64,000 nt of DNA, from the NCBI GenBank assembly GCA_000004695.1, contig CM000153.2, positions 5,280,001 to 5,344,000 of the forward strand, read 5' to 3'. Made by a program: the position numbers and the translations under genes. Source of the DNA: Dictyostelium discoideum. Its lineage: Eukaryota. Shown piece after piece: positions 122-23,965 of the stretch. The notes below the pieces were generated by a model. It did no database searches, was not told where the DNA came from, and saw nothing but the letters and a program-made list of their open reading frames with translations. Every line of letters starts with the position of its first letter. The first letter of the stretch is position 1.

Positions 122-3100
122 ATGGTTAATAAATTTCAAAATAATAATAATAATCAATTTTTAGATATTAATTTAGTATCATTCTCTGAGCAAATATTAG
201 GTACACTATTAGTTTGTCCAAAAGAGAGTAAATTTAAATCTGTTCAATCTAATGATATTCTTGGTCAAAATAGTACTCCTACACAAACAACAGTTGCTTC
301 CAATACTTCAAATTCATTACCACCACTACCTTTATCACAGCAACAGCATCAACAAACACCACCATCACATCCATTACCACAACCACCATCACATTCTCAT
401 TTTCATTCTCATTCTCATTCAAATTCACATTTACAACCAAATTTACAATCATTATTGCAACAAAGTTCAACACTTTCTTTAATTGTACCAAGTCCATTAA
501 AATCACCAATTTCATTTAGACAACAACAACAGAATCAACAATTACCAATAAAATCACAAACTTTAATTTCAATTAAAAATGATAGTATTAACTTTCAAGA
601 AGATTTTGAAACTAAAAATAAAGAGAAAGAAAATAATATATTTTATAATTCACCTTTATTAAAATTACCACAGATGCAAAAACCAATACCAATAATATTT
701 CAAAAGTTTATTACAAATATTAATGCACAATTTCTAATGATTCAATGGCTTTCTAAATTAGATGAATTCAATCAAACTTATCAACAATTAGTTTCTAATA
801 TTAAACATTTAACAAATCCTCATCAATCTCCATCAATAAATCAAAATAATACCAATACTACCAATTCAACATTTACATCTCAAGAAGAAATAAAATTAGC
901 AAAATCATCATCCTTTTCATCAATGTCTTCAGTTTCATCATCGTCATCTTCTTCATTATCATATTCTTTATCTACACAAAGTGTATTTAATAATAATAAT
1001 AATAATAATGATGATCATTTTTATTTAAAACTTAACTTACCAATTAAAGTTAATAAAAAAATGGTAGAAGTAATTCAAAAAAGATTTCAATCTATTCAAG
1101 ATCAATTGAAAAAGAATAGTTCAACAACTTTTTCAGATTTATTTTATTCAGTTTTTCCAAATATTTATACAAACTATAGAGAATTGGTATTATGTAAAAA
1201 GAATTCACCAATGCCAATGATAACTATTACCTTTTCACCAGATTCTCAATCATCACCACCAAATTCAACACCATTAACAGCTCATATTAAATCATCAAGT
1301 TTTTCATCTAATATTAATGGTTATCCTATCACCACCAGCACTACTACCTCTGCCACCACCACTACCACACCAATTAATTCATCATCTTCAAATACAAATT
1401 CAACAGCAGCAGCAGCAGTAACAAAAACAACTAATTCACCAATATCATCAAATTATAATAGTAATTATCAATATAATAGAACTGATAGTAATAGAAGTAA
1501 TAGTAGTAATAATGGTATGACAAAATCTCATTCATCTTCATTTTCAACTGGTTCAAGATCAAATTCAAATTTAACTGAATTATTATTACCAAATCAAATT
1601 ATATCAACAATGGATATTGATAAATTTAAGATGGGAGAAATTGTATTTCAAAGTATTTTAGTAAACTTTCATTTAGATTCAAAGAAATTACCATTGAATG
1701 TTATATATAGTAAATTGGTCTTACTAGTATTAATTAAAGCAACACATTTCTCACAATCTAGATCGATTAAAGAAATGTATAGATTAATTTCAAAACATTT
1801 AAAAAATCAAAACCAAATTAATATATTCAATCAAAAGTTTAAACCAATCTTTAAACAACTTTCAAATGATAATCCACATCTTCAATTGAATTGGATATTG
1901 TTAATTGAAGAATGGTTTCCTGATGAATGGGAAAATCCAAAACAGTTATTCCCAAGATCAACAAATGAAATTAAAGGTTCATTCTTTGGTAAAAGATTAT
2001 TAACACCAGCAATTCATCAACATTTGTTTACACCAGATGGTCAATTTATTAAGCGTAATAAATATGGTAAAAAAGATGTATCTTGGTATCCTGAGAAAGA
2101 ACCAGTTTGGTATTTTAAAAAGTATCCTGAAATTGCAGGTTATGAATATGCAGCAACTGAACTAATGAGATCATTAGGTATTAAGAATTTACCATACTCT
2201 GAATTGATTTTATTCTATGATCCACAATTAAAAAAATCATATCCAGTATTATTAACTTTAGCTGTACAAGGTAAATGTATTTCTGATATTTGGTTATCAT
2301 CACAATCAAATATAACATCATCATCATCATCATCATCAACATCAACATCAACATCAATACCAAATTCTAGTCCAACAACAAATTTTAATTCACATTTAAG
2401 TGAAATTAATGAAAATTTATTAGATAAACATAATACTGGTTTATTGATAATTTCTTCATTACTTTTATCAGTTGAAGATGGTAAACCTGATAATTTCATA
2501 TTATCAGATAATGGTAAATATTTAACACCAATTGATAATGATCGTTGTTTTATAGCACCATCAACAGTTTGTGAAAAAGGATCATCATTCATCTATGTAT
2601 TAATGGAACAGAAAAAGAAATTAGTAATGAAATCAATATTATTTAATCTATCAATGATGAAAGAGAAAGTAGATGAATCAGTACAACGATTCTTTTTAGA
2701 TTTAGATTGTTTTGAATTCCTTAAAGAATGGTTAGAGAATTTAATCTATGTTCATGATAGATATTCAACTCTTTTACCAGAAGAAGAATTAAATTCACTC
2801 TATAATCAAAATAATTGTATAGTTCGTATATTTTTTACAACTCAAATGATTCATAATCTTTATAATACATTATTAAATATTCAATATCATTTTAAATATT
2901 CAATAACAAATAGTTATTTAGATTTAATTTCAAAATTATTTGATCCATTTGTTTTTAAACAATATCAATTATCATTTAATATTTGTAATAATAATAATAA
3001 TAATAATAATGATCAAAATCAAAATTATTTAAAATCTTCACCCACAATATTATCATTACAAGAAAGATATAAGTCAATGGTATTTTATAATAATGGTATT

Positions 3101-4497
3101 AATAATTTAAAACAAATTGTAAATATGTTAGGAATTACAAATCAAGAATTATTTGGTGAAGCAGTAAGAGTAAAGAATGAACCATCAACGGCTTTAGCAT
3201 ATTTAAAGAAAATGAATCAACGTAAACAAGATATTAAAAATACAAATCAAAAGATTTTAATGAATAGTTCACCAAATTCTAGTCCACCAAATCAAAGTCC
3301 ACCAAATTCAATTAGTAATTTATCAACTTGTTTAAATTTATCAATCCAACAACAAATAACCTTACCAAATCAATTACATCAACATCAATATCAACAACAA
3401 CAACTATATAAACAATTACAACAACAACCATCACCATCACCATCACCACAACAACAACAACAAAATGAAATGATTAATACAATTGATGTGTCACAATTTA
3501 ATAAAAAACAATGTGTAGAATTTGAAAAGAAATTTAAAAATGAATTTCCAAATGCAGAGAGTTTTTCAATTCATAATTCATTATTTACAGATTCTTATAT
3601 AAAGAAACTTAGTTTCTCTCATATTCAATTTTTAGATTTAAGAAATTCTGAAAAATTAACACGTGCATCACTTGGTTATCTTATAAAGATAACACCAGAA
3701 TTAATTTATTTAAATATTAGTGGTTGGAAATCATTGAAAAAGTTAATGTTTACAAGTAATTCAAATTTTGAAATGGGTTTAATTGATTTAAATCAATTGG
3801 TTACTCTAGAGGATGAAACTCAAATTCCACCTACAAAACTTAATAAATTGGTTGTCAATGATTGTTGTAATTTAGAGATTATCGATTTCTATTGTTCAAT
3901 GCCTCAATTAAAAACTTTAGATTGTTATAGAAATAATAAATTGGAAAAAGTTCGTTTAAATTATAATGTAAAATTAAATACTGATATTGATGATTCAAAA
4001 ATTTTAAAAAGACCTTTAAATTTTATAATTTTAGGTGATAAAAATGTTGGTAAAGTAAGTATAATAATTTTTAAAAAATAATAAAAAAAAAAAAAAAAAC
4101 TATATAAAACTAATTAATTAATTAAATAATTAAAAAAAATAGACATCAGTTATAAAATTATTTAAATATAAAAGTAGTATAAAATTAATGCTTCCAAATT
4201 TTTATGAATCAACTTTTGAAAATCCAATTCCAGTTGAAATTTTAAATATAATTGAATCAAAAATTAAATCAAATTGTTTCTGTGGATTTAATATTATTTT
4301 AGTTTATGATTGTTTTTCAGAAGAAAGTCTTGTTAAATGTAAAAAATGGTTATATAATTTTAAAAAGATTGTTGATCCATGTGATTATATTAGAATCACT
4401 TTAATTGGTAATAAATATGATTTATTATCAATTAAAGTTAATGATAATGATGTTAATGTAAGTTTTAAAAAAAAAAATATAAAAAAAAAAATATATG

Positions 4498-17534: not shown

Positions 17535-17549
17535 TCTTTTTAAATATTT

Positions 17550-17621
17550 CCTAAACACAAAAATAATAATTTATATTCCCTAAACACAAAAATAATAATT
17601 TTTCACACACCCACCAAATTT
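17550..17621 (+). promoter_or_regulatory. Candidate promoter elements upstream of the G-alpha gene: a 23-bp direct repeat (CCTAAACACAAAAATAATAATTT x2) and a CA-rich element TTCACACACCCACCAAA.
   Basis: Direct repeat at 17550..17572 and 17579..17601. The CACACACCCACC motif at 17603..17621 resembles Dictyostelium G-box/CA-rich elements (GBF sites) and sits ~30 bp upstream of the ATG at 17647. Confidence 0.35.
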
Positions 17622-17646: not shown

Positions 17647-19535
17647 ATGGATTTCAATCCAGTACCACCACCAAGAGAAACACTCAGAGCTTATTTATCA
17701 AAAAAAGGACATGGTAGGAATTATATATATATAAAAAAAAAAAAAAAAATAAAGATCTAACATATATTAACATTTTTTTTTTTTTTTTTTAAAAATGAAA
17801 AAAGTTGTGAAAAATTGGAAATTAAGATTATTTGTATTAAAACCAGGTTCTAGTTATATGGAATATTTTGTAGATGAAACAGTAAGTTTAATTTTAATAT
17901 TCCAATTTAATTTTATTTTATTTTTTTATAAATCCTGATTTTTTTTTTTTTTATATTTTTTTTTAGAAAGAACAACAACATTTACCACAAGGTAGAGTAC
18001 CATTATATGGTACTAGAGTTATGGAATATGTATATAATAGTAATAATAATCCAAGAGAATTTTGTTTATCAGTAGAGACAGAAAATAAGAATTGGATTAT
18101 TTCAACAGGATCAAAAGCACAACAATTGGAATGGATTGAAGCAATTAAACATGCCATAGAGTCAGCAGTTGAAACAGACGAAATTAAATTACAAAAACAT
18201 AAATCAATTGAAAAACAGTTACAATTGGATGGTAAAAATAAAAATAAAATTCCAGTTTTAAAATTATTATTACTTGGTACTGGTGAATCTGGTAAATCAA
18301 CAGTTGTAAAACAAATGAAAATTTTACATCATAAAGGTTTCTCAAAAGAGGAGGAAGAATTTTATAGGAATTTAATTTATATAAATCTATTGGATGGTAT
18401 GGCATTACTCATTCATGTAATCAAAGAAAATAATATAGAAATTCCACAAGAAACTTTATCAGCAATTAAAAATTATAGTTCATGGTATAGAGTTTATATT
18501 GAAAAAAGAAATAAAAATGGTATTAGAAATAATCCAATTGGTTCAATGATACCAATTTCAATTTTAAATAATAATAAAGATAATAATAATAGCAATAGTA
18601 GTAGTTTAAAAAATAATAGTGGTGGTAGTTCAAGTAGTGAATTAGATAAAAAAATGACACATCTTAGTTTAGATGGATCAACTTGTATAAATTCAAATTC
18701 TGCTTCACCAAATGGACCATCATCATCTACAACAACATCAACAATAAATACACACAATCGTTCAAATAGTGATGGATCAAGTAATAATATATTTAATGTT
18801 CAAGATTTTGGAATTCCACCAATAATTACAAATTATATATCAACGATTTGGTCGGATCCAGTTGTACAATCAGAGGTGATGTTACAAGCTCAAAAGTATC
18901 ATATTAATGAATCCACTCAATATTATTTGAATGAGATAAAGAGAATAGGTAAACCAACATACCAACCTGTAAATTTAGATATCCTAAAATCACGTGCAAC
19001 TACCAATGGTGTGGTTGAAACTGATTTCAATGTAAATGGTGAAGTTATATTTAGAATTGTTGATGTTGCAGGTCAACGTGGTGAAAGAAAGAAATGGATA
19101 AACTTTTTCGATGATGTAACTGCAATAGTTTTCGTTGCAGCTATAAATGAATACGATCAGAAATTGGTCGAAGATAATTGTACCAATAGACTTCATGAAA
19201 GTTTGAATCTATTCGATTCGATTTGTAATGATTCAACTTTTCCAAAGACTTCAATCATATTATTCTTAAATAAAATCGATCTTTTCCGTGAGAAATTAAA
19301 AAGAACCTCAATCAATATTTGTTTTCCAGATTATAATGGTGATCAATCTTATGAAAAATCTTCAAATTATATAAAGAATAATTTTCTTTCAAAGAAAAAA
19401 GGTGGTAATGGTATAAATTCTCAAAATTTTATTTATTTCCATTTCACATGTGCCACTGATACTAAAAGTTTTGAAACAGTTTTTAATTCTGTTAGAGATA
19501 TTATAATTTCAAAAACTTTAGAATTTTATTGTTAA
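17647..19535 (+). CDS. Heterotrimeric G-protein alpha subunit with an N-terminal PH domain and an N/S-rich insert. Exons join(17647..17713,17805..17881,17967..19535).
   Basis: G-alpha motifs KLLLLGTGESGKSTVVKQMKILH (G1), RATTNGVVE (switch I), DVAGQRGERKKW (G3), FLNKIDLF (G4) and TCATDT (G5). Two short exons plus the start of exon 3 encode a PH-domain-like module (AYLSKKGH|VVKNWKLRLFVLKPGSSYMEYFVDET|KEQQHLPQGRVPLYGTRVMEY...NWIISTGSKAQQLEWIEAIKHAI). Intron phases are 1 and 0 with donors gtagga and gtaagt. Confidence 0.75.
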
Positions 19536-19967: not shown

Positions 19968-20791
19968 ATGGCATCAGTTGAATCAAAAGTACAAGAATCA
20001 AAGAAACTTTATGATGAATTAAACTTAATTTTTATTAATAATCCTGAAATGTATGTCTTTTATATTAACATTATTATTTACTCTTTATTTATTAACTAAC
20101 ATTTTTTTTTTTTTTCCTTTTGAAAAAGTAATGAGATTGGATTTGTAATGTCATCAAAAGATTATGATGGATTAGAGAATAAACCATTTGTATTAGTTGA
20201 AAATAAATTAGGTATTTCATTTCAATGGATGATAAAATTATATTCATATGCATTAACATACTTTACAGAATTAAAATCAGCATTTGAAAAGAAAATGAAT
20301 GATTTACCAGAAAGACATCAACAATTATTAGTTAATGAATTATTACAAGCAACTAGAAATGTATTATTAATTAATGCTGAAAATTTAACTGCTTTAAATT
20401 TAAGGTAAATAATAAACTACTATGTTATTATTATCAATTATATTTAAATATATATATATATAAATATTTAACTTTTTTTTTTTTTTTTAATATCTATTTA
20501 TATATATATATATAGGAAAGAATTAATAAATTTAAAATATATTAAACATAAAGATGAAATTTCATTATTAAATTTAATATTTACAAAACATCCAAAAAGT
20601 GGTGAGGGATGGGCACATAGAAAATGGGTTATAACAGATTATTTTAAAAAAACAGGTGATTATCTTGATTATGAAATTGAATTAGCAGTTTGTAAAAGAG
20701 TTGCTGAAATTTATCCTAAAAATTATTATTCTTGGACTCATAGATGGTGGATTTTACAACATTTATCAGTTGATATTGTAAGTTTATCTCA

Positions 20792-20822
<31 letters not shown>

Positions 20823-21359
20823 TTATAAAACTAATTTCAATCTTATTTATTATTATTATTATTAATTATTAATTATTTAGATTTTAAAAGATTTAGAAAC
20901 TATGGAAGATTGGGTTAAAAGAAATATTTCAGATTATTGTGGATATCATCATAGATATTTAATATTGACACATTTATTTAATAAATGTTATAATAGTAAT
21001 GATGATAATAATAATAATGAAAGTAAAAGTGAAGAGAATTCAAACGAAATGAAAATTCATAAGTTATGGGAAGACGAATTTAATTTTATTCATAAAATAA
21101 TTAATTTATATCCAGGTCATGAATCATCTTGGTCATATAAGAGAGTTTTAACATTATTTTGGTTACAAATTGCACAACCAATAGTTTTTCAACGTAACAT
21201 TTCAACAACTGTACCAATTACATCATTACAACAAGAATCTCAATTTGTTGATTCAATTTTAGAAGATATCGACTCATCATATTATGAACAACAAAAATCT
21301 TTTGCTCAAAGATATTTACTTTCAATTTATGAAGTATGTATTTTTTATAACTTTATAAA

Positions 21360-21444
<85 letters not shown>

Positions 21445-21629
21445 GGTATTAATTTTATTTTTAATTTTATTTTTAATTTTAGTTAAAATTTAAAGATAGT
21501 GCAGATTTTTCAATTGATATTGATCAAGTAAAAAATAATTATAGTATAATTATAAATGACTTAAAAATTTCTTTCCCAAACCAATTAAAGGTTTGGGAAT
21601 ATAAATTAAACCAATTCGTTGGTCAATAA
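19968..21629 (+). CDS. Protein prenyltransferase alpha-subunit repeat protein (PTAR1-like). Exons join(19968..20050,20129..20404,20516..20777,20881..21333,21483..21629).
   Basis: PPTA-type repeats with W..HR.W spacing (GWAHRKWVI, SWTHRWWIL, GYHHRYLIL, SWSYKRVL). There are four AT-rich introns with gtatgt/gtaaat/gtaagt donors and consistent phases. The last intron holds an 84-bp (tta)n microsatellite that the track reads as polyLeu. Confidence 0.6.
21361..21443. repeat. (TTA)n microsatellite, ~28 units, inside the last PTAR1 intron
   Basis: Perfect ttattatta... run. Confidence 0.9.
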
Positions 21630-22046: not shown

Positions 22047-23965
22047 ATGATAAATAGATTAAATAGATTATGTAAAAAAAATATATTAAATAATATTTTA
22101 AATAATAACAAAAATGTTAGTAATAGAATAATAAATAGGTTTTATTGTAATTTAAATACAACAAATCTAAAAATAAATAATGATAATAATTTAAAAGAAA
22201 GTATTAGAGAAAAAATTAAAGATATACCAAGTTTAAATGAATTTTTAAGAAATAGTAATAATGAAATTAATGAAAATAATGAAAATAAAAGTAAAATTGA
22301 AACTGAAGAAGAATATGAATTACCACCATATTTATCATCATTACCAAATGATAAAGGTAATGGTAGAAAAGTTTGGATTGAAACCTATGGTTGTCAAATG
22401 AATGTTAGTGATGAAGAAGTTATTTGTTCAATTATGAAATCATCAGGATATACTATTTCAAATGATTTCAATACTGCTGATATTGTATTTTTAAATACAT
22501 GTTCAATTAGAGAGAATGCAGAAGCAAAGATTTGGTTACGTTTAACCGAGTTGAGAGCAATTAGAAGAAAACAAGGTAGACCAAATTTAATAGTTGGTGT
22601 TTTAGGTTGTATGGCAGAACGTTTAAAAGAGAAATTATTAGAGTCTGATATGAAAGTTGATATAGTGGTTGGACCTGATGCATACAGATCATTACCATCA
22701 TTATTGGCAACACTCGAAGATGGTGAGCAACAAACTGCAATCAATGTAATATTATCAGCTGATGAAACTTATGCTGATATTAAACCAGTTAGAAAATCTG
22801 ATAATCAAGTTTCAGCATATGTTTCAATTATGAGAGGTTGTAATAATATGTGTTCCTATTGTATTGTACCATTTACAAGAGGTAGAGAAAGAAGTAGACC
22901 AATTGATTCAATACTTAGAGAAGTTAAAGATTTATCTGATCAAGGTTTTAAAGAAATTACTTTATTAGGTCAAAATGTTAATTCATTTAATTATTATGAA
23001 GAATCAAATAATAATAATAATGAAAATTTTATTGATACTCAAAAAAATAAATTAGAATTGGAATCATTAAAACCAAGAGAAGGTTTTAAAACAATTTATA
23101 AATCACCAAAAAAAGGTATAACATTTACAAAATTAATGGAATTAGTTTCAAAAGTTGATCCTGAAATTAGAATTAGATTTACAAGTCCACATCCAAAAGA
23201 TTTTCCAGATGATGTAAATATTATTATTTATTTATTTATATATATATATATATTTTAGTTAATTGATTTATTAATTAATTTTTTTTTTTTTTTTTTTTAA
23301 TAATTTAGTTATTAGAATTAATTAAAAATCAACCAAATATTTGTAAACAATTACATATACCAGCACAAAGTGGTAGTAGTAAAGTATTAGAATCAATGAG
23401 AAGAGGATATACTAGAGAAAGTTATATAGAATTAATTGATACAATTAAAAGAGTATTACCAGGTTGTGCAATTTCATCAGATTTTATTAGTGGATTTTGT
23501 GGTGAATCAGATCAAGATCATAATGAAACAATATCATTAATGGAATATGTTGGATATGAGAATGCATTCATGTTTATGTATTCACTTCGTGAGAAAACTC
23601 ATGCACATCGTCAATTGAAAGATGATGTTCCAACAACACTTAAAAACTCAAGATTAACTCAAGTTGTAGATACATTTTACAAAAGATTAAAAGAAAAGAA
23701 TCAATTGGAGATTGGTAATCATCATTTAGTTTTAGTGGATGGTTTTAGTAAAAGATCAGAAAAAGATTTCGTTGGTAGAACTGATACCAATAAAAAAGTT
23801 TTAATCAGTAATGATATTGAAAATCAAGATATTAAAGTTGGTGAATATTATATAGTAGAAATTATAAAAGGTGATTCTGAAGTTACCTTAAAAGGTAAAC
23901 CAATTATGAAATCTTCAATTCAACATTTTAATAATATTTATAATCATAAAAATAAATTTATTTAA
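22047..23965 (+). CDS. CDK5RAP1/MiaB-like tRNA methylthiotransferase (radical SAM), probably mitochondrial. Exons join(22047..23213,23309..23965).
   Basis: MTTase N-domain [17 protein letters not shown]. Radical-SAM CxxxCxxC motif [21 protein letters not shown]. The phase-0 gtaaat intron is followed by [23 protein letters not shown] (TRAM-proximal region). The N-terminus is a basic presequence. Confidence 0.75.

Follow-up and report, generated by a model that had tools for sequence, protein, structure and literature searches.

Positions 17647 to 19535 of the window, i.e., of the whole 64,000-nucleotide stretch of Dictyostelium discoideum DNA that was analyzed, carry a three-exon gene on the forward strand. 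Its spliced coding sequence of 1713 nt encodes a protein of 570 amino acids, for which an exact look-up revealed an identity of 570 out of 570 residues with XP_637414.1 / EAL63880.1 / UniRef100_Q54KV6. The respective entries (XP_637414.1, UniProt Q54KV6) bear the name “G-protein subunit alpha 3”, gene gpaC, of D. discoideum. The locus is the already annotated, long-known gpaC gene encoding Gα3, one of 12 Gα subunits of D. discoideum (PMC12849267). The original prediction had recognized neither this identity nor that the domain composition was on record. Gα3 contributes to polyphosphate sensing (PMC10653871) and is reported to be required for early development (Brandon and Podgorski, 1997).

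Exon 1 encodes an unconserved N-terminal tail and strand beta1 (RAYLSKKGH) of a PH domain, whereas exon 3 comprises the remainder of this domain, the alpha-N helix and the entire Gα part (Table 1). The GC content ranges from 23 to 37% in the exons versus 9 to 13% in the introns and flanks. The ATG at 17647 is preceded, at a distance of two codons, by a stop codon, and 46 nt 5' of the start codon lies a tandem duplication of a 29-nt unit, a position that is likely part of the gpaC 5' UTR or promoter. Orthologs combining PH and Gα were found in D. firmibasis, D. citrinum, D. dimigraforme, D. purpureum, Polysphondylium violaceum and Tieghemostelium lacteum, and further in Acytostelium subglobosum (two copies) and Synstelium polycarpum.

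Table 1. Features of the gpaC locus (positions within the window)
Feature	Position	Strand	Content and evidence
29-nt unit ATATT[T/C]CCTAAACACAAAAATAATAATTT, tandem duplication	17544..17601	+	repeat search, 97% identity
Exon 1	17647..17713	+	start codon, residues 1-22 and first base of codon 23
PH domain, residues 13-114	17683..18164	+	split by both introns; Pfam PF00169, phmmer, AlphaFold, Foldseek, motif
Intron 1	17714..17804	+	phase 1, GT..AG, 91 nt, 10% GC
Exon 2	17805..17881	+	residues 23-48, PH strands beta2-beta3 (VVKNWKLRLFVLK...YFVDET)
Intron 2	17882..17966	+	phase 0, GTAAGT..AG, 85 nt, 9% GC
Exon 3	17967..19535	+	residues 49-570 and stop codon
Alpha-N helix, residues 119-140	18177..18242	+	AlphaFold helix; alignment to Gα o/i/t
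P-loop GTGESGKS, residues 152-159	18276..18299	+	
S/N-rich low-complexity insert, residues 233-319	18519..18779	+	AlphaFold pLDDT below 50; composition; ortholog identity
Switch I RATTNGV, residues 391-397	18993..19013	+	catalytic Arg391, Mg-binding Thr394
Switch II DVAGQRGERKKW, residues 414-425	19062..19097	+	catalytic Gln418 present
NKID guanine-specificity motif, residues 483-486	19269..19280	+	
TCATDT guanine-ring motif, residues 542-547	19446..19463	+	

The Gα part

Gα3 is a Gi/o-type alpha subunit of heterotrimeric G proteins. The Pfam profile for Gα (PF00503) was matched by residues 125-561 with an E-value of 1.6e-109 and 366.5 bits (cut-off 48.8) and was covered from position 3 to 333 of 333, and the identity to canonical Gα i/o/t subunits amounts to about 45-50% over the GTPase. 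In the full-length AlphaFold model the predicted Gα fold, including the all-helical domain that interrupts the Ras-like domain, could be placed on Gi/Gt structures with target TM values of 0.84-0.92 and E-values of about 1e-28. Helix 119-140 is, according to alignment and model, homologous to the Gβγ-binding N-terminal helix of Gα i/o. The motifs GTGESGKS, RATTNGV, DVAGQRGERKKW, FLNKID and TCATDT are found in all orthologs, and judging from these residues the motif set for GTP binding and hydrolysis is intact in Gα3. Within switch II, Ala416 occupies the position of a Gly in most Gα subunits, and the exchange of the first Gly of DVGGQ for Ala is shared by most Gα3 orthologs.

The large N/S-rich insert which the original prediction had placed in the helical domain was recovered there (Table 1). 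It contains 24 Ser and 17 Asn in 88 residues, comes after the second of the long helices in the helical domain and is probably located in the alphaB-alphaC loop. The insert is hypervariable, with 10-22% identity to distant orthologs, and appears to be disordered in the model; no structural role is predicted for this fast-evolving loop.

The N-terminal PH domain

The N-terminus of Gα3 carries a complete PH domain. Within the full-length protein the Pfam profile PF00169 was matched by residues 16-112 (E 7.7e-13, 49.3 bits), which cover positions 6-104 of 105, and with the isolated N-terminus an E-value of 2.1e-14 and 54.4 bits were obtained; the curated cut-off is 25.1 bits, so that a chance match is out of the question. 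An AlphaFold model of the PH region alone (pLDDT 82) has strands at residues 13-20, 27-34, 40-44, 57-60, 65-69, 81-85 and 90-94 and a helix at residues 98-114. The full-length model likewise predicts a PH sandwich at residues 13-114; its least confident part is the beta1-beta2 loop (residues 21-30, pLDDT 53). The best Foldseek matches of the PH-only model were all PH domains, with target TM values of up to 0.85, and included pleckstrin C-PH, PLEKHA6/7, TAPP1, GRP1, AKT and DAPP1. A phmmer search of the PH region against the PDB yielded pleckstrin-2 (E 2.3e-11), pleckstrin (4e-8), TAPP1 (6e-6) and DAPP1 (3e-4), and also AKT2/3. Profile search and structure prediction agree on the fold whose absence the original prediction had named as grounds for giving it up, and both proposed hallmarks are present: the YLSKKGH signature, which continues into VVKNWKLRLFVLK across the exon 1/exon 2 junction, and the C-terminal helix (QQLEWIEAIKHAI) with Trp104, which is invariant among the orthologs.

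Authenticity of the upstream exons

The longest plain ORF of the locus starts at Met67 (18021), and a GenBank record of the corresponding 504-aa protein (AAB88395.1) is on file. The upstream exons might thus be misannotated, in which case the true protein would comprise 504 amino acids and the PH-like half would be untranslated. Neither the 504-aa nor the 570-aa product gave a D. discoideum transcript contig in exact look-ups, which is in keeping with this reading. Logan contigs with a 503-aa variant are uninformative on splicing, because they are genomic pieces that retain intron 2, and a degenerate pattern of the exon 1/exon 2 junction matched only the already known contig among the JGI metagenome contigs.

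The comparison with other Dictyostelia, however, argues strongly against a start at Met67, the other ground on which the original prediction was to be abandoned. Other species have Gly, Phe, Glu, Ala or Thr in place of this residue, exon 1 is present and conserved in all orthologs, and residues 13-48 are nearly invariant whereas the introns cannot be aligned. In five genomes, and at every locus examined, intron 1 interrupts an identical codon position; these loci include the P. violaceum and T. lacteum genes and the two paralogs of A. subglobosum. Intron 2 is shared by P. violaceum and A. subglobosum but missing from T. lacteum, which results in a continuous genomic ORF there. Moreover, transcript-like contigs of about 2.2 kb that lack introns, found in five JGI samples, encode the whole PH-Gα ORF and have in-frame stops ahead of it. 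A protein of 504 amino acids would start halfway through the PH fold, at strand beta5, and the PH signature is restored only through the exact phase-1 splice. Both upstream exons of gpaC are real, as the originally proposed three-exon model implied, and the Met67 start, which we regard as highly improbable, is close to refuted. A further in-frame ATG at 17795 within intron 1 was dropped as an alternative start, because exon 1 is conserved and this ATG is absent from the orthologous P. violaceum intron.

A PH domain in place of the acylated N-terminus

Gα subunits are the textbook case of membrane anchoring by N-terminal myristate and palmitate. Gα3 possesses neither a Gly2 myristoylation nor a Cys3 palmitoylation site: its N-terminus reads MDFNPVPPP, and the first Cys of the sequence, C81, already belongs to the PH fold. 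The orthologs start with MD, ME or MS in every case, Gly2 occurs in none of those examined, and none of the nine has a Cys ahead of PH strand beta1. Residues 1-40 are devoid of Cys in four of the nine orthologs; the remaining five have a single early Cys, which belongs to beta1 (YLCKKGH).

The sequence that follows MGC in canonical Gα o/i aligns to residues about 114-119 of Gα3, and only a four-residue linker separates the PH helix (98-114) from alpha-N (119-140). No indels in the spacing between PH domain and P-loop were detected in any ortholog. The end of the PH domain, after the four-residue break, is the site which is taken by the acylated N-terminus in canonical Gα subunits. The originally suggested loss of the MGC start and the direct succession of PH domain, alpha-N and P-loop are in agreement with these observations.

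Distribution and conservation

The identity to distant orthologs amounts to 63-69% in the PH domain versus 66-73% in the Ras-like C-terminal half, and conservation of the PH domain across Dictyostelia equals that of the GTPase core. A profile of residues 1-203 was compared with 1.84 billion cluster representatives and recovered one full-length cluster, which consists of Dictyostelia (392 bits); the next match reached 125 bits. Ten two-stretch matches that were scanned with Pfam turned out to be mostly tandem or partial Gα or multi-PH proteins. Solely the environmental sequence P0136, a singleton without named relatives, combines PH and Gα, with a linker of about 185 amino acids. A word-indexed profile search for other PH-Gα fusions returned no additional ones. 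Among the 1.84 billion cluster representatives the contiguous PH-Gα architecture is confined to Dictyostelia.

Proposed role of the PH domain

In the beta1-beta2 region the PH domain of Gα3 contains the basic motif K19-K20-G-x6-K28-x-R30-L-F, of which K-x-G-x6-K-x-R-L-F is kept in all nine orthologs. The stretch KKGHVVKNWKLRLF (residues 19-32) is identical in eight of them, with an exchange of V for I in the remaining one. It fits the pattern K-X-Sm-X(6-11)-R/K-X-R-Hyd-Hyd of 3-phosphoinositide binders, and in an ungapped alignment the motif falls onto K14/R23/R25 of AKT1. The invariant residues K19, K28, R30 and K89 correspond to the canonical inositol-phosphate-binding ones. Several points weigh against a lipid-anchor role: with 15 K/R versus 12 D/E the domain reaches a net charge of no more than about +3, the beta1-beta2 loop is modeled with low confidence in the full-length protein, prenylation of Gβγ alone might be enough to attach a heterotrimer to the membrane, and many PH domains with basic beta1-beta2 residues exhibit weak or zero lipid binding.

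Since the basic motif is invariant and the nearest solved relatives are pleckstrin C-PH, TAPP1, DAPP1 and AKT, phosphoinositide-dependent membrane targeting appears to be the most likely role. We consider it fairly probable that the gpaC product is a Gi/o-type Gα subunit whose PH domain substitutes for the lipid anchors via phosphoinositide binding, and the original idea of a lipid-binding PH domain that replaces acylation in membrane targeting is plausible on the basis of the sequence. The PH domain would then perform the task of the missing anchors: a pocket formed by K19, K28 and R30 (and K89) would bind phosphoinositide headgroups and thereby tether the start of alpha-N to the inner membrane face. 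According to the motif and the nearest solved relatives the preferred lipids may be 3-phosphorylated, namely PI(3,4)P2 and/or PIP3. Residence of Gα3 at the membrane, and hence its access to receptors and Gβγ, would in this case depend on PI3-kinase activity.

Alternatively, the PH domain might mainly serve as a protein-interaction or regulatory module, with membrane attachment left to the prenylated Gγ. Possible contacts are Gβγ, a receptor, an effector, or the GTPase itself, onto which the domain could fold back and regulate nucleotide exchange. The length of the four-residue linker is invariant in all orthologs, which suggests a fixed geometry beside the Gβ-binding helix, and Gβγ binding is established for other PH domains, e.g., those of GRK2 and PLC-beta. 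This explanation seems unlikely to us as the principal one, as the invariant residues are exactly those of canonical inositol-phosphate binding, the PH domains closest to it among solved structures bind lipids and the loss of every acylation site coincides with the gain of the PH domain in all orthologs. The two roles are not mutually exclusive. An observation in favor of the interaction role and against the lipid anchor comes from PIP3-bead proteomics of Dictyostelium cytosol, in which, according to a published summary, PhdA, PKB, PhdB, PhdG, PhdI and three myosin-I proteins were captured while Gα3 is absent from the bound proteins (PMC3419119). This absence may stem from abundance or membrane association alone.

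Even with lipid binding as the favored role, the identity of the lipid allows for different readings. The PH domain might be a constitutive, unspecific anchor for plentiful acidic lipids, e.g., PI(4,5)P2 or phosphatidylserine, and do no more than stand in for myristate and palmitate, with no link to PI3-kinase signaling. The motif predicts headgroup binding but not reliably its specificity, and the top structural and sequence matches also include the PH domains of PLEKHA6/7 and OSBP-related proteins, which lack specificity for 3-phosphoinositides. The best sequence matches, on the other hand, are the PH domains of the pleckstrin and pleckstrin-2 C-terminus, TAPP1, DAPP1 and AKT, which bind PI(3,4)P2/PIP3, and the Gα3 motif fits their pattern K-X-Sm-X6-11-R/K-X-R-Hyd-Hyd. 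A constitutive anchor is possible, although rather doubtful. With similar reserve we put forward, as a tentative extension, that Gα3 could be a phosphoinositide-gated Gα subunit, in which binding of PI(3,4)P2/PIP3 lets PI3-kinase set place and timing at the membrane as well as coupling to receptors and Gβγ.

If gating applied, it would provide direct feedback from lipid signaling onto a heterotrimeric G protein, which to our knowledge is undescribed for any Gα subunit, and earlier constructs built on the 504-aa Met67 model, if there are any, would have carried a broken PH domain. A whole clade has exchanged the lipid anchor of a Gα subunit for a PH domain with the signature of PI3-kinase-product binding, and it includes Dictyostelium, the organism with the best-studied PIP3 signaling and G-protein-driven chemotaxis. 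Binding of 3-phosphoinositides by this domain would establish a direct link between PIP3 and G-protein signaling and a simple, testable case of rewired membrane targeting of a G protein. In the searchable literature neither a published discussion of the Gα3 PH domain nor measurements of its lipid binding or localization were found; a mention in subscription literature is possible. As public databases already contain the gpaC gene together with its domain composition, the value of this analysis lies in flagging an under-discussed feature and not in a discovery.

Comparison with known systems

The current Q54KV6 entry shows zero differences from the product of the window, whereas AAB88395.1, the older record of 504 amino acids, has Met67 as its first residue and thus misses residues 1-66 of the 570-aa Gα3. 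With canonical Gα i/o/t subunits (e.g., PDB 1GP2, 1GOT, 1GIA) Gα3 has in common the fold and alpha-N as well as the P-loop, the Arg/Thr of switch I, the Gln of switch II, NKxD and TCAxDT. It differs from them by a 114-residue PH module instead of the MGC acylation motif, by an extra disordered insert of 87 residues in the helical domain, by DVAGQ instead of DVGGQ in switch II and by a C-terminus which is three residues shorter and ends in ...EFYC.

The PH domains of pleckstrin/pleckstrin-2 (C-PH), TAPP1, DAPP1 and AKT share the basic beta1-beta2 motif with Gα3, e.g., KQGH(K/R)RKNWK(V)R(R/K)F compared to KKGHVVKNWKLRLF. In pleckstrin, TAPP1, DAPP1 and AKT, however, the domain is part of adaptors or kinases, while in Gα3 it is located on a GTPase. 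Gα subunits with a large N-terminal extension are also represented by the plant XLG proteins and mammalian XL-alpha-s, yet these extensions are cysteine-rich/NLS-containing and proline-rich, respectively, and neither is a PH domain. The closest parallel in design is found in a sister GTPase family: Arf-like GTPases of kinetoplastids and choanoflagellates accreted an N-terminal PH domain, which was interpreted as a membrane-attachment device instead of N-myristoylation (Vargova et al., 2021, PMC8358228). The evolutionary solution is the same as in Gα3, but family and lineages are different, and the PH domain of the Arf-like GTPases is connected by a long linker as opposed to the four-residue junction in Gα3.

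Gene Model and Identity of gpaC

In the extremely AT-rich, Dictyostelium-type sequence of the window, the three-exon structure of the original prediction was recovered for gpaC (see table), with a G+C content of 23-37% in the exons versus 9-13% in introns and flanks and a stop codon two codons upstream of the ATG. An exact look-up showed that the spliced product is identical to XP_637414.1 / EAL63880.1 / UniRef100_Q54KV6, annotated as "G-protein subunit alpha 3" of D. discoideum AX4 and encoded by one of 12 G-alpha genes of this species (PMC12849267). gpaC is a known, annotated gene whose PH and G-alpha architecture is already present in databases: PF00169 and PF00503 are both found in the precomputed Pfam list, and the D. 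firmibasis and P. violaceum orthologues are named "PH domain-containing protein" in UniProt. In the searchable open-access literature, including recent papers with g-alpha-3-null cells or lists of the G-alpha family, no mention of the PH domain was found.

Coordinates of gpaC, neighbouring features and the Acytostelium subglobosum loci
Sequence	Feature	Position	Strand	Remarks
window	29-nt tandem duplication	17544-17601		two copies
window	gpaC, three-exon gene	17647-19535	+	spliced product 570 aa
window	gpaC exon 1	17647-17713	+	
window	gpaC intron 1	17714-17804	+	GT..AG, 91 nt
window	ORF opened by intron 1 ATG	17795-17938		47 aa
window	gpaC exon 2	17805-17881	+	
window	gpaC intron 2	17882-17966	+	GTAAGT..AG, 85 nt
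window	gpaC exon 3	17967-19535	+	stop codon included
window	switch II DVAGQ	19062-19076		residues 414-418
window	C-terminus LEFYC	19518-19535		
window	downstream neighbour 1	19968-21486	+	multi-exon; start at 19968
window	downstream neighbour 2	22047-23965	+	two ORFs
L013	PH-G-alpha-3 locus	1501-3512		
L014	PH-G-alpha-3 locus	1501-3491		

A tandem duplication of the unit ATATT[T/C]CCTAAACACAAAAATAATAATTT lies 46 nt upstream of the start codon, distinct from the surrounding poly-T/poly-A; its copies are 97% identical in perfect register, and it may act as an element of the promoter or 5' UTR. Downstream of gpaC follow a multi-exon gene (MASVESKVQESKKLYDEL...) and a two-ORF gene whose product, judged by eye, resembles radical-SAM methylthiotransferases of the MiaB/CDK5RAP1 type.

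The N-Terminal PH Domain

The predicted PH domain was detected by profile, sequence and structure. Pfam PF00169 matched residues 16-112 (E 7.7e-13 with the whole protein, 2.1e-14 with the N-terminus alone), and a phmmer search of all PDB chains returned the C-terminal PH domains of pleckstrin-2 (2.3e-11) and pleckstrin (4e-8), TAPP1 (6e-6) and DAPP1 (3e-4) as well as AKT2 and AKT3. In the full-length AlphaFold model (mean pLDDT 71.5), seven strands form a sandwich that ends in a C-terminal helix (13-114); a break of four residues, a long helix (119-140) and the G-alpha fold come next, so that the PH domain is followed directly by the alpha-N helix and the P-loop, as had been proposed. Residues 1-145 modelled alone (pLDDT 82) matched only PH domains in the PDB, the best being pleckstrin C-PH, PLEKHA6/7, TAPP1, GRP1, AKT and DAPP1.

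Four independent lines of evidence indicate that the two small exons truly belong to G-alpha-3. The older GenBank record AAB88395.1 (504 aa) begins with Met67, encoded by the ATG at 18021 which the original prediction had named as an alternative start; that this is the true start and the longer model an annotation artefact is very unlikely. Nothing but the exact phase-1 splice regenerates the PH signature KKGH|VVKNWKLRLF, which aligns with pleckstrin and AKT through the exon junction without gaps. The combination of PH and G-alpha recurs in orthologues all over Dictyostelia, with the PH domain well conserved (see below), and Met67 is not conserved, its place being taken by Gly, Phe, Glu, Ala or Thr in other species. 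In P. violaceum, T. lacteum and the two A. subglobosum genes, intron 1 interrupts the identical codon. D. discoideum shares intron 2 with P. violaceum and A. subglobosum; T. lacteum lacks it, so that exons 2 and 3 there form a single uninterrupted genomic reading frame. Finally, a P. violaceum relative is represented in five JGI environmental samples by ~2.2-kb contigs that encode a complete 611-aa PH-G-alpha protein as one intron-less ORF with in-frame stops upstream and UTR-like flanking sequence; these contigs behave like spliced transcripts. For D. discoideum no transcript contigs of gpaC were obtained, the Logan contigs found being genomic.

Near its 3' end, intron 1 contains an ATG opening an ORF (MKKVVKNWKLRLF...) with exon 2 in frame. 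A transcript initiated within the intron could in principle yield a product without PH strand beta1; this ATG is probably coincidental, since it is missing from the orthologous P. violaceum intron.

The G-Alpha Part and the Missing Acylation Sites

Pfam PF00503 covers residues 125-561 (E 1.6e-109), and superposition of the modelled GTPase part on Gi/Gt crystal structures gave target TM values of 0.84-0.92. The hallmarks GTGESGKS, RATTNGV (switch I), NKID and TCATDT are complete, and switch II (DVAGQRGERKKW) keeps the catalytic Gln. Within the helical domain, the second long helix is followed by the predicted N/S-rich insert (residues 233-319; 27% Ser, 19% Asn), the sole long low-confidence stretch of the model.

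When G-alpha o/i/t and fungal G-alpha were aligned, the sequence following their MGC (LSAEER..., "SKAIEKNLKEDG") fell on residues ~114-140 of G-alpha-3 ("AVETDEIKLQKHKSIEKQLQLDG"), which places the end of the PH domain exactly at the position of the usual acylated N-terminus and indicates a complete alpha-N helix, the G-beta-gamma-binding element of G-alpha. Between PH domain and P-loop the spacing shows no insertion or deletion across orthologues. Because none of the orthologues possesses Gly2 or a Cys upstream of the PH fold, N-myristoylation and N-terminal palmitoylation can be excluded on sequence grounds, in agreement with the suggested replacement of the MGC terminus. G-alpha-3 is thus a Gi/o-like protein, apparently able to cycle nucleotides and to bind G-beta-gamma, which, as read from its sequence, has lost its lipid-modification sites.

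Switch II carries a Ras-like DVAGQ, with Ala for the near-universal first Gly of DVGGQ, in Dictyostelium, Polysphondylium, Tieghemostelium and Synstelium; both Acytostelium paralogues have DVGGQ. Changes at this Gly alter activation of G-alpha o/i2, so by analogy the nucleotide-cycling kinetics may be unusual. The C-terminus, which determines receptor selectivity in G-alpha, is three residues shorter than in Gi/o; its terminal (F/L/M)YC is kept in Dictyostelium, Polysphondylium and Tieghemostelium, the Acytostelium proteins ending in ...LELAV and ...DATVV.

Orthologues and Distribution

Orthologues with PH and G-alpha were found in D. firmibasis, D. citrinum, D. dimigraforme, D. purpureum, Polysphondylium violaceum, Tieghemostelium lacteum, Acytostelium subglobosum (two paralogues) and Synstelium polycarpum. 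Identity to the most distant of them amounts to 63-69% in the PH domain, 66-73% in the Ras-like C-terminal half, 43-48% in the first half of the helical domain and 10-22% in the insert. The A. subglobosum paralogues (60% and 54% identical to G-alpha-3) keep both N-terminal introns and have additional ones downstream; since both loci adjoin a sulfotransferase-like gene downstream, a segmental duplication is suggested. The 506-aa Synstelium model from EukProt (P0017) matches in the PH domain and both Ras-like halves; it probably reflects an error of gene prediction and not true divergence, because identity across the second half of the helical domain is only 12% and the C-terminus is aberrant.

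A search of 1.84 billion cluster representatives with a profile built on residues 1-203 (PH, alpha-N, P-loop) gave a single full-length match, the dictyostelid cluster (392 bits, runner-up 125 bits); the nearest G-alpha relatives outside Dictyostelia are ordinary Go/Gi-type proteins without PH. Among two-stretch matches, the C-terminally truncated protein P0136 from a eukaryotic JGI environmental contig (2077 bp) was the sole other one with both domains (PH 27-125, a helical linker of ~185 aa, G-alpha from 310 to the end). It looks like another fusion of independent origin, although it may also be a chimeric assembly; it lacks the K-x-G...K-x-R motif, and no relatives of the same architecture were found among 5.8 billion proteins.

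Possible Function of the PH Domain

The conserved PH domain occupies the membrane-facing point of canonical heterotrimers, where it would attach G-alpha-3 to the membrane through the headgroups of phosphoinositides, probably of the 3-phosphorylated kind. K19, K20, K25, K28, R30 and K89 are invariant in the orthologues, and K19-K-G-x6-K28-L-R30-L-F matches the pattern of 3-phosphoinositide-binding PH domains (K-X-Sm-X6-11-R/K-X-R-Hyd-Hyd), aligning residue for residue with K14, R23 and R25 of AKT1. The His after the conserved Gly is shared with the C-terminal PH domain of pleckstrin, a PI(3,4)P2 binder; in TAPP1 this position controls exclusion of the 5-phosphate. The domain could instead be a constitutive, unspecific anchor to acidic lipids, or a protein-interaction or regulatory module contacting, for instance, G-beta-gamma, as the GRK2 PH domain does. 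Caution on lipid binding is urged by a net charge of only about +3 and by a proteomic screen of Dictyostelium cytosol with PIP3 beads, in whose list, as summarised in PMC3419119, G-alpha-3 is missing. On balance, we regard phosphoinositide-mediated targeting as fairly probable and a real dependence on PI3K as less likely than not; the original observation is confirmed in all its elements and its interpretation is supported, a lipid-binding domain in place of acylation being plausible.

An N-terminal PH domain is unusual among G-alpha proteins and restricted to one clade, and in this model organism it would have a clear consequence for mechanism. A comparable case is found in the sister family of Arf-like GTPases, which acquired an N-terminal PH domain in kinetoplastids and choanoflagellates, where it was read as a membrane anchor (PMC8358228).
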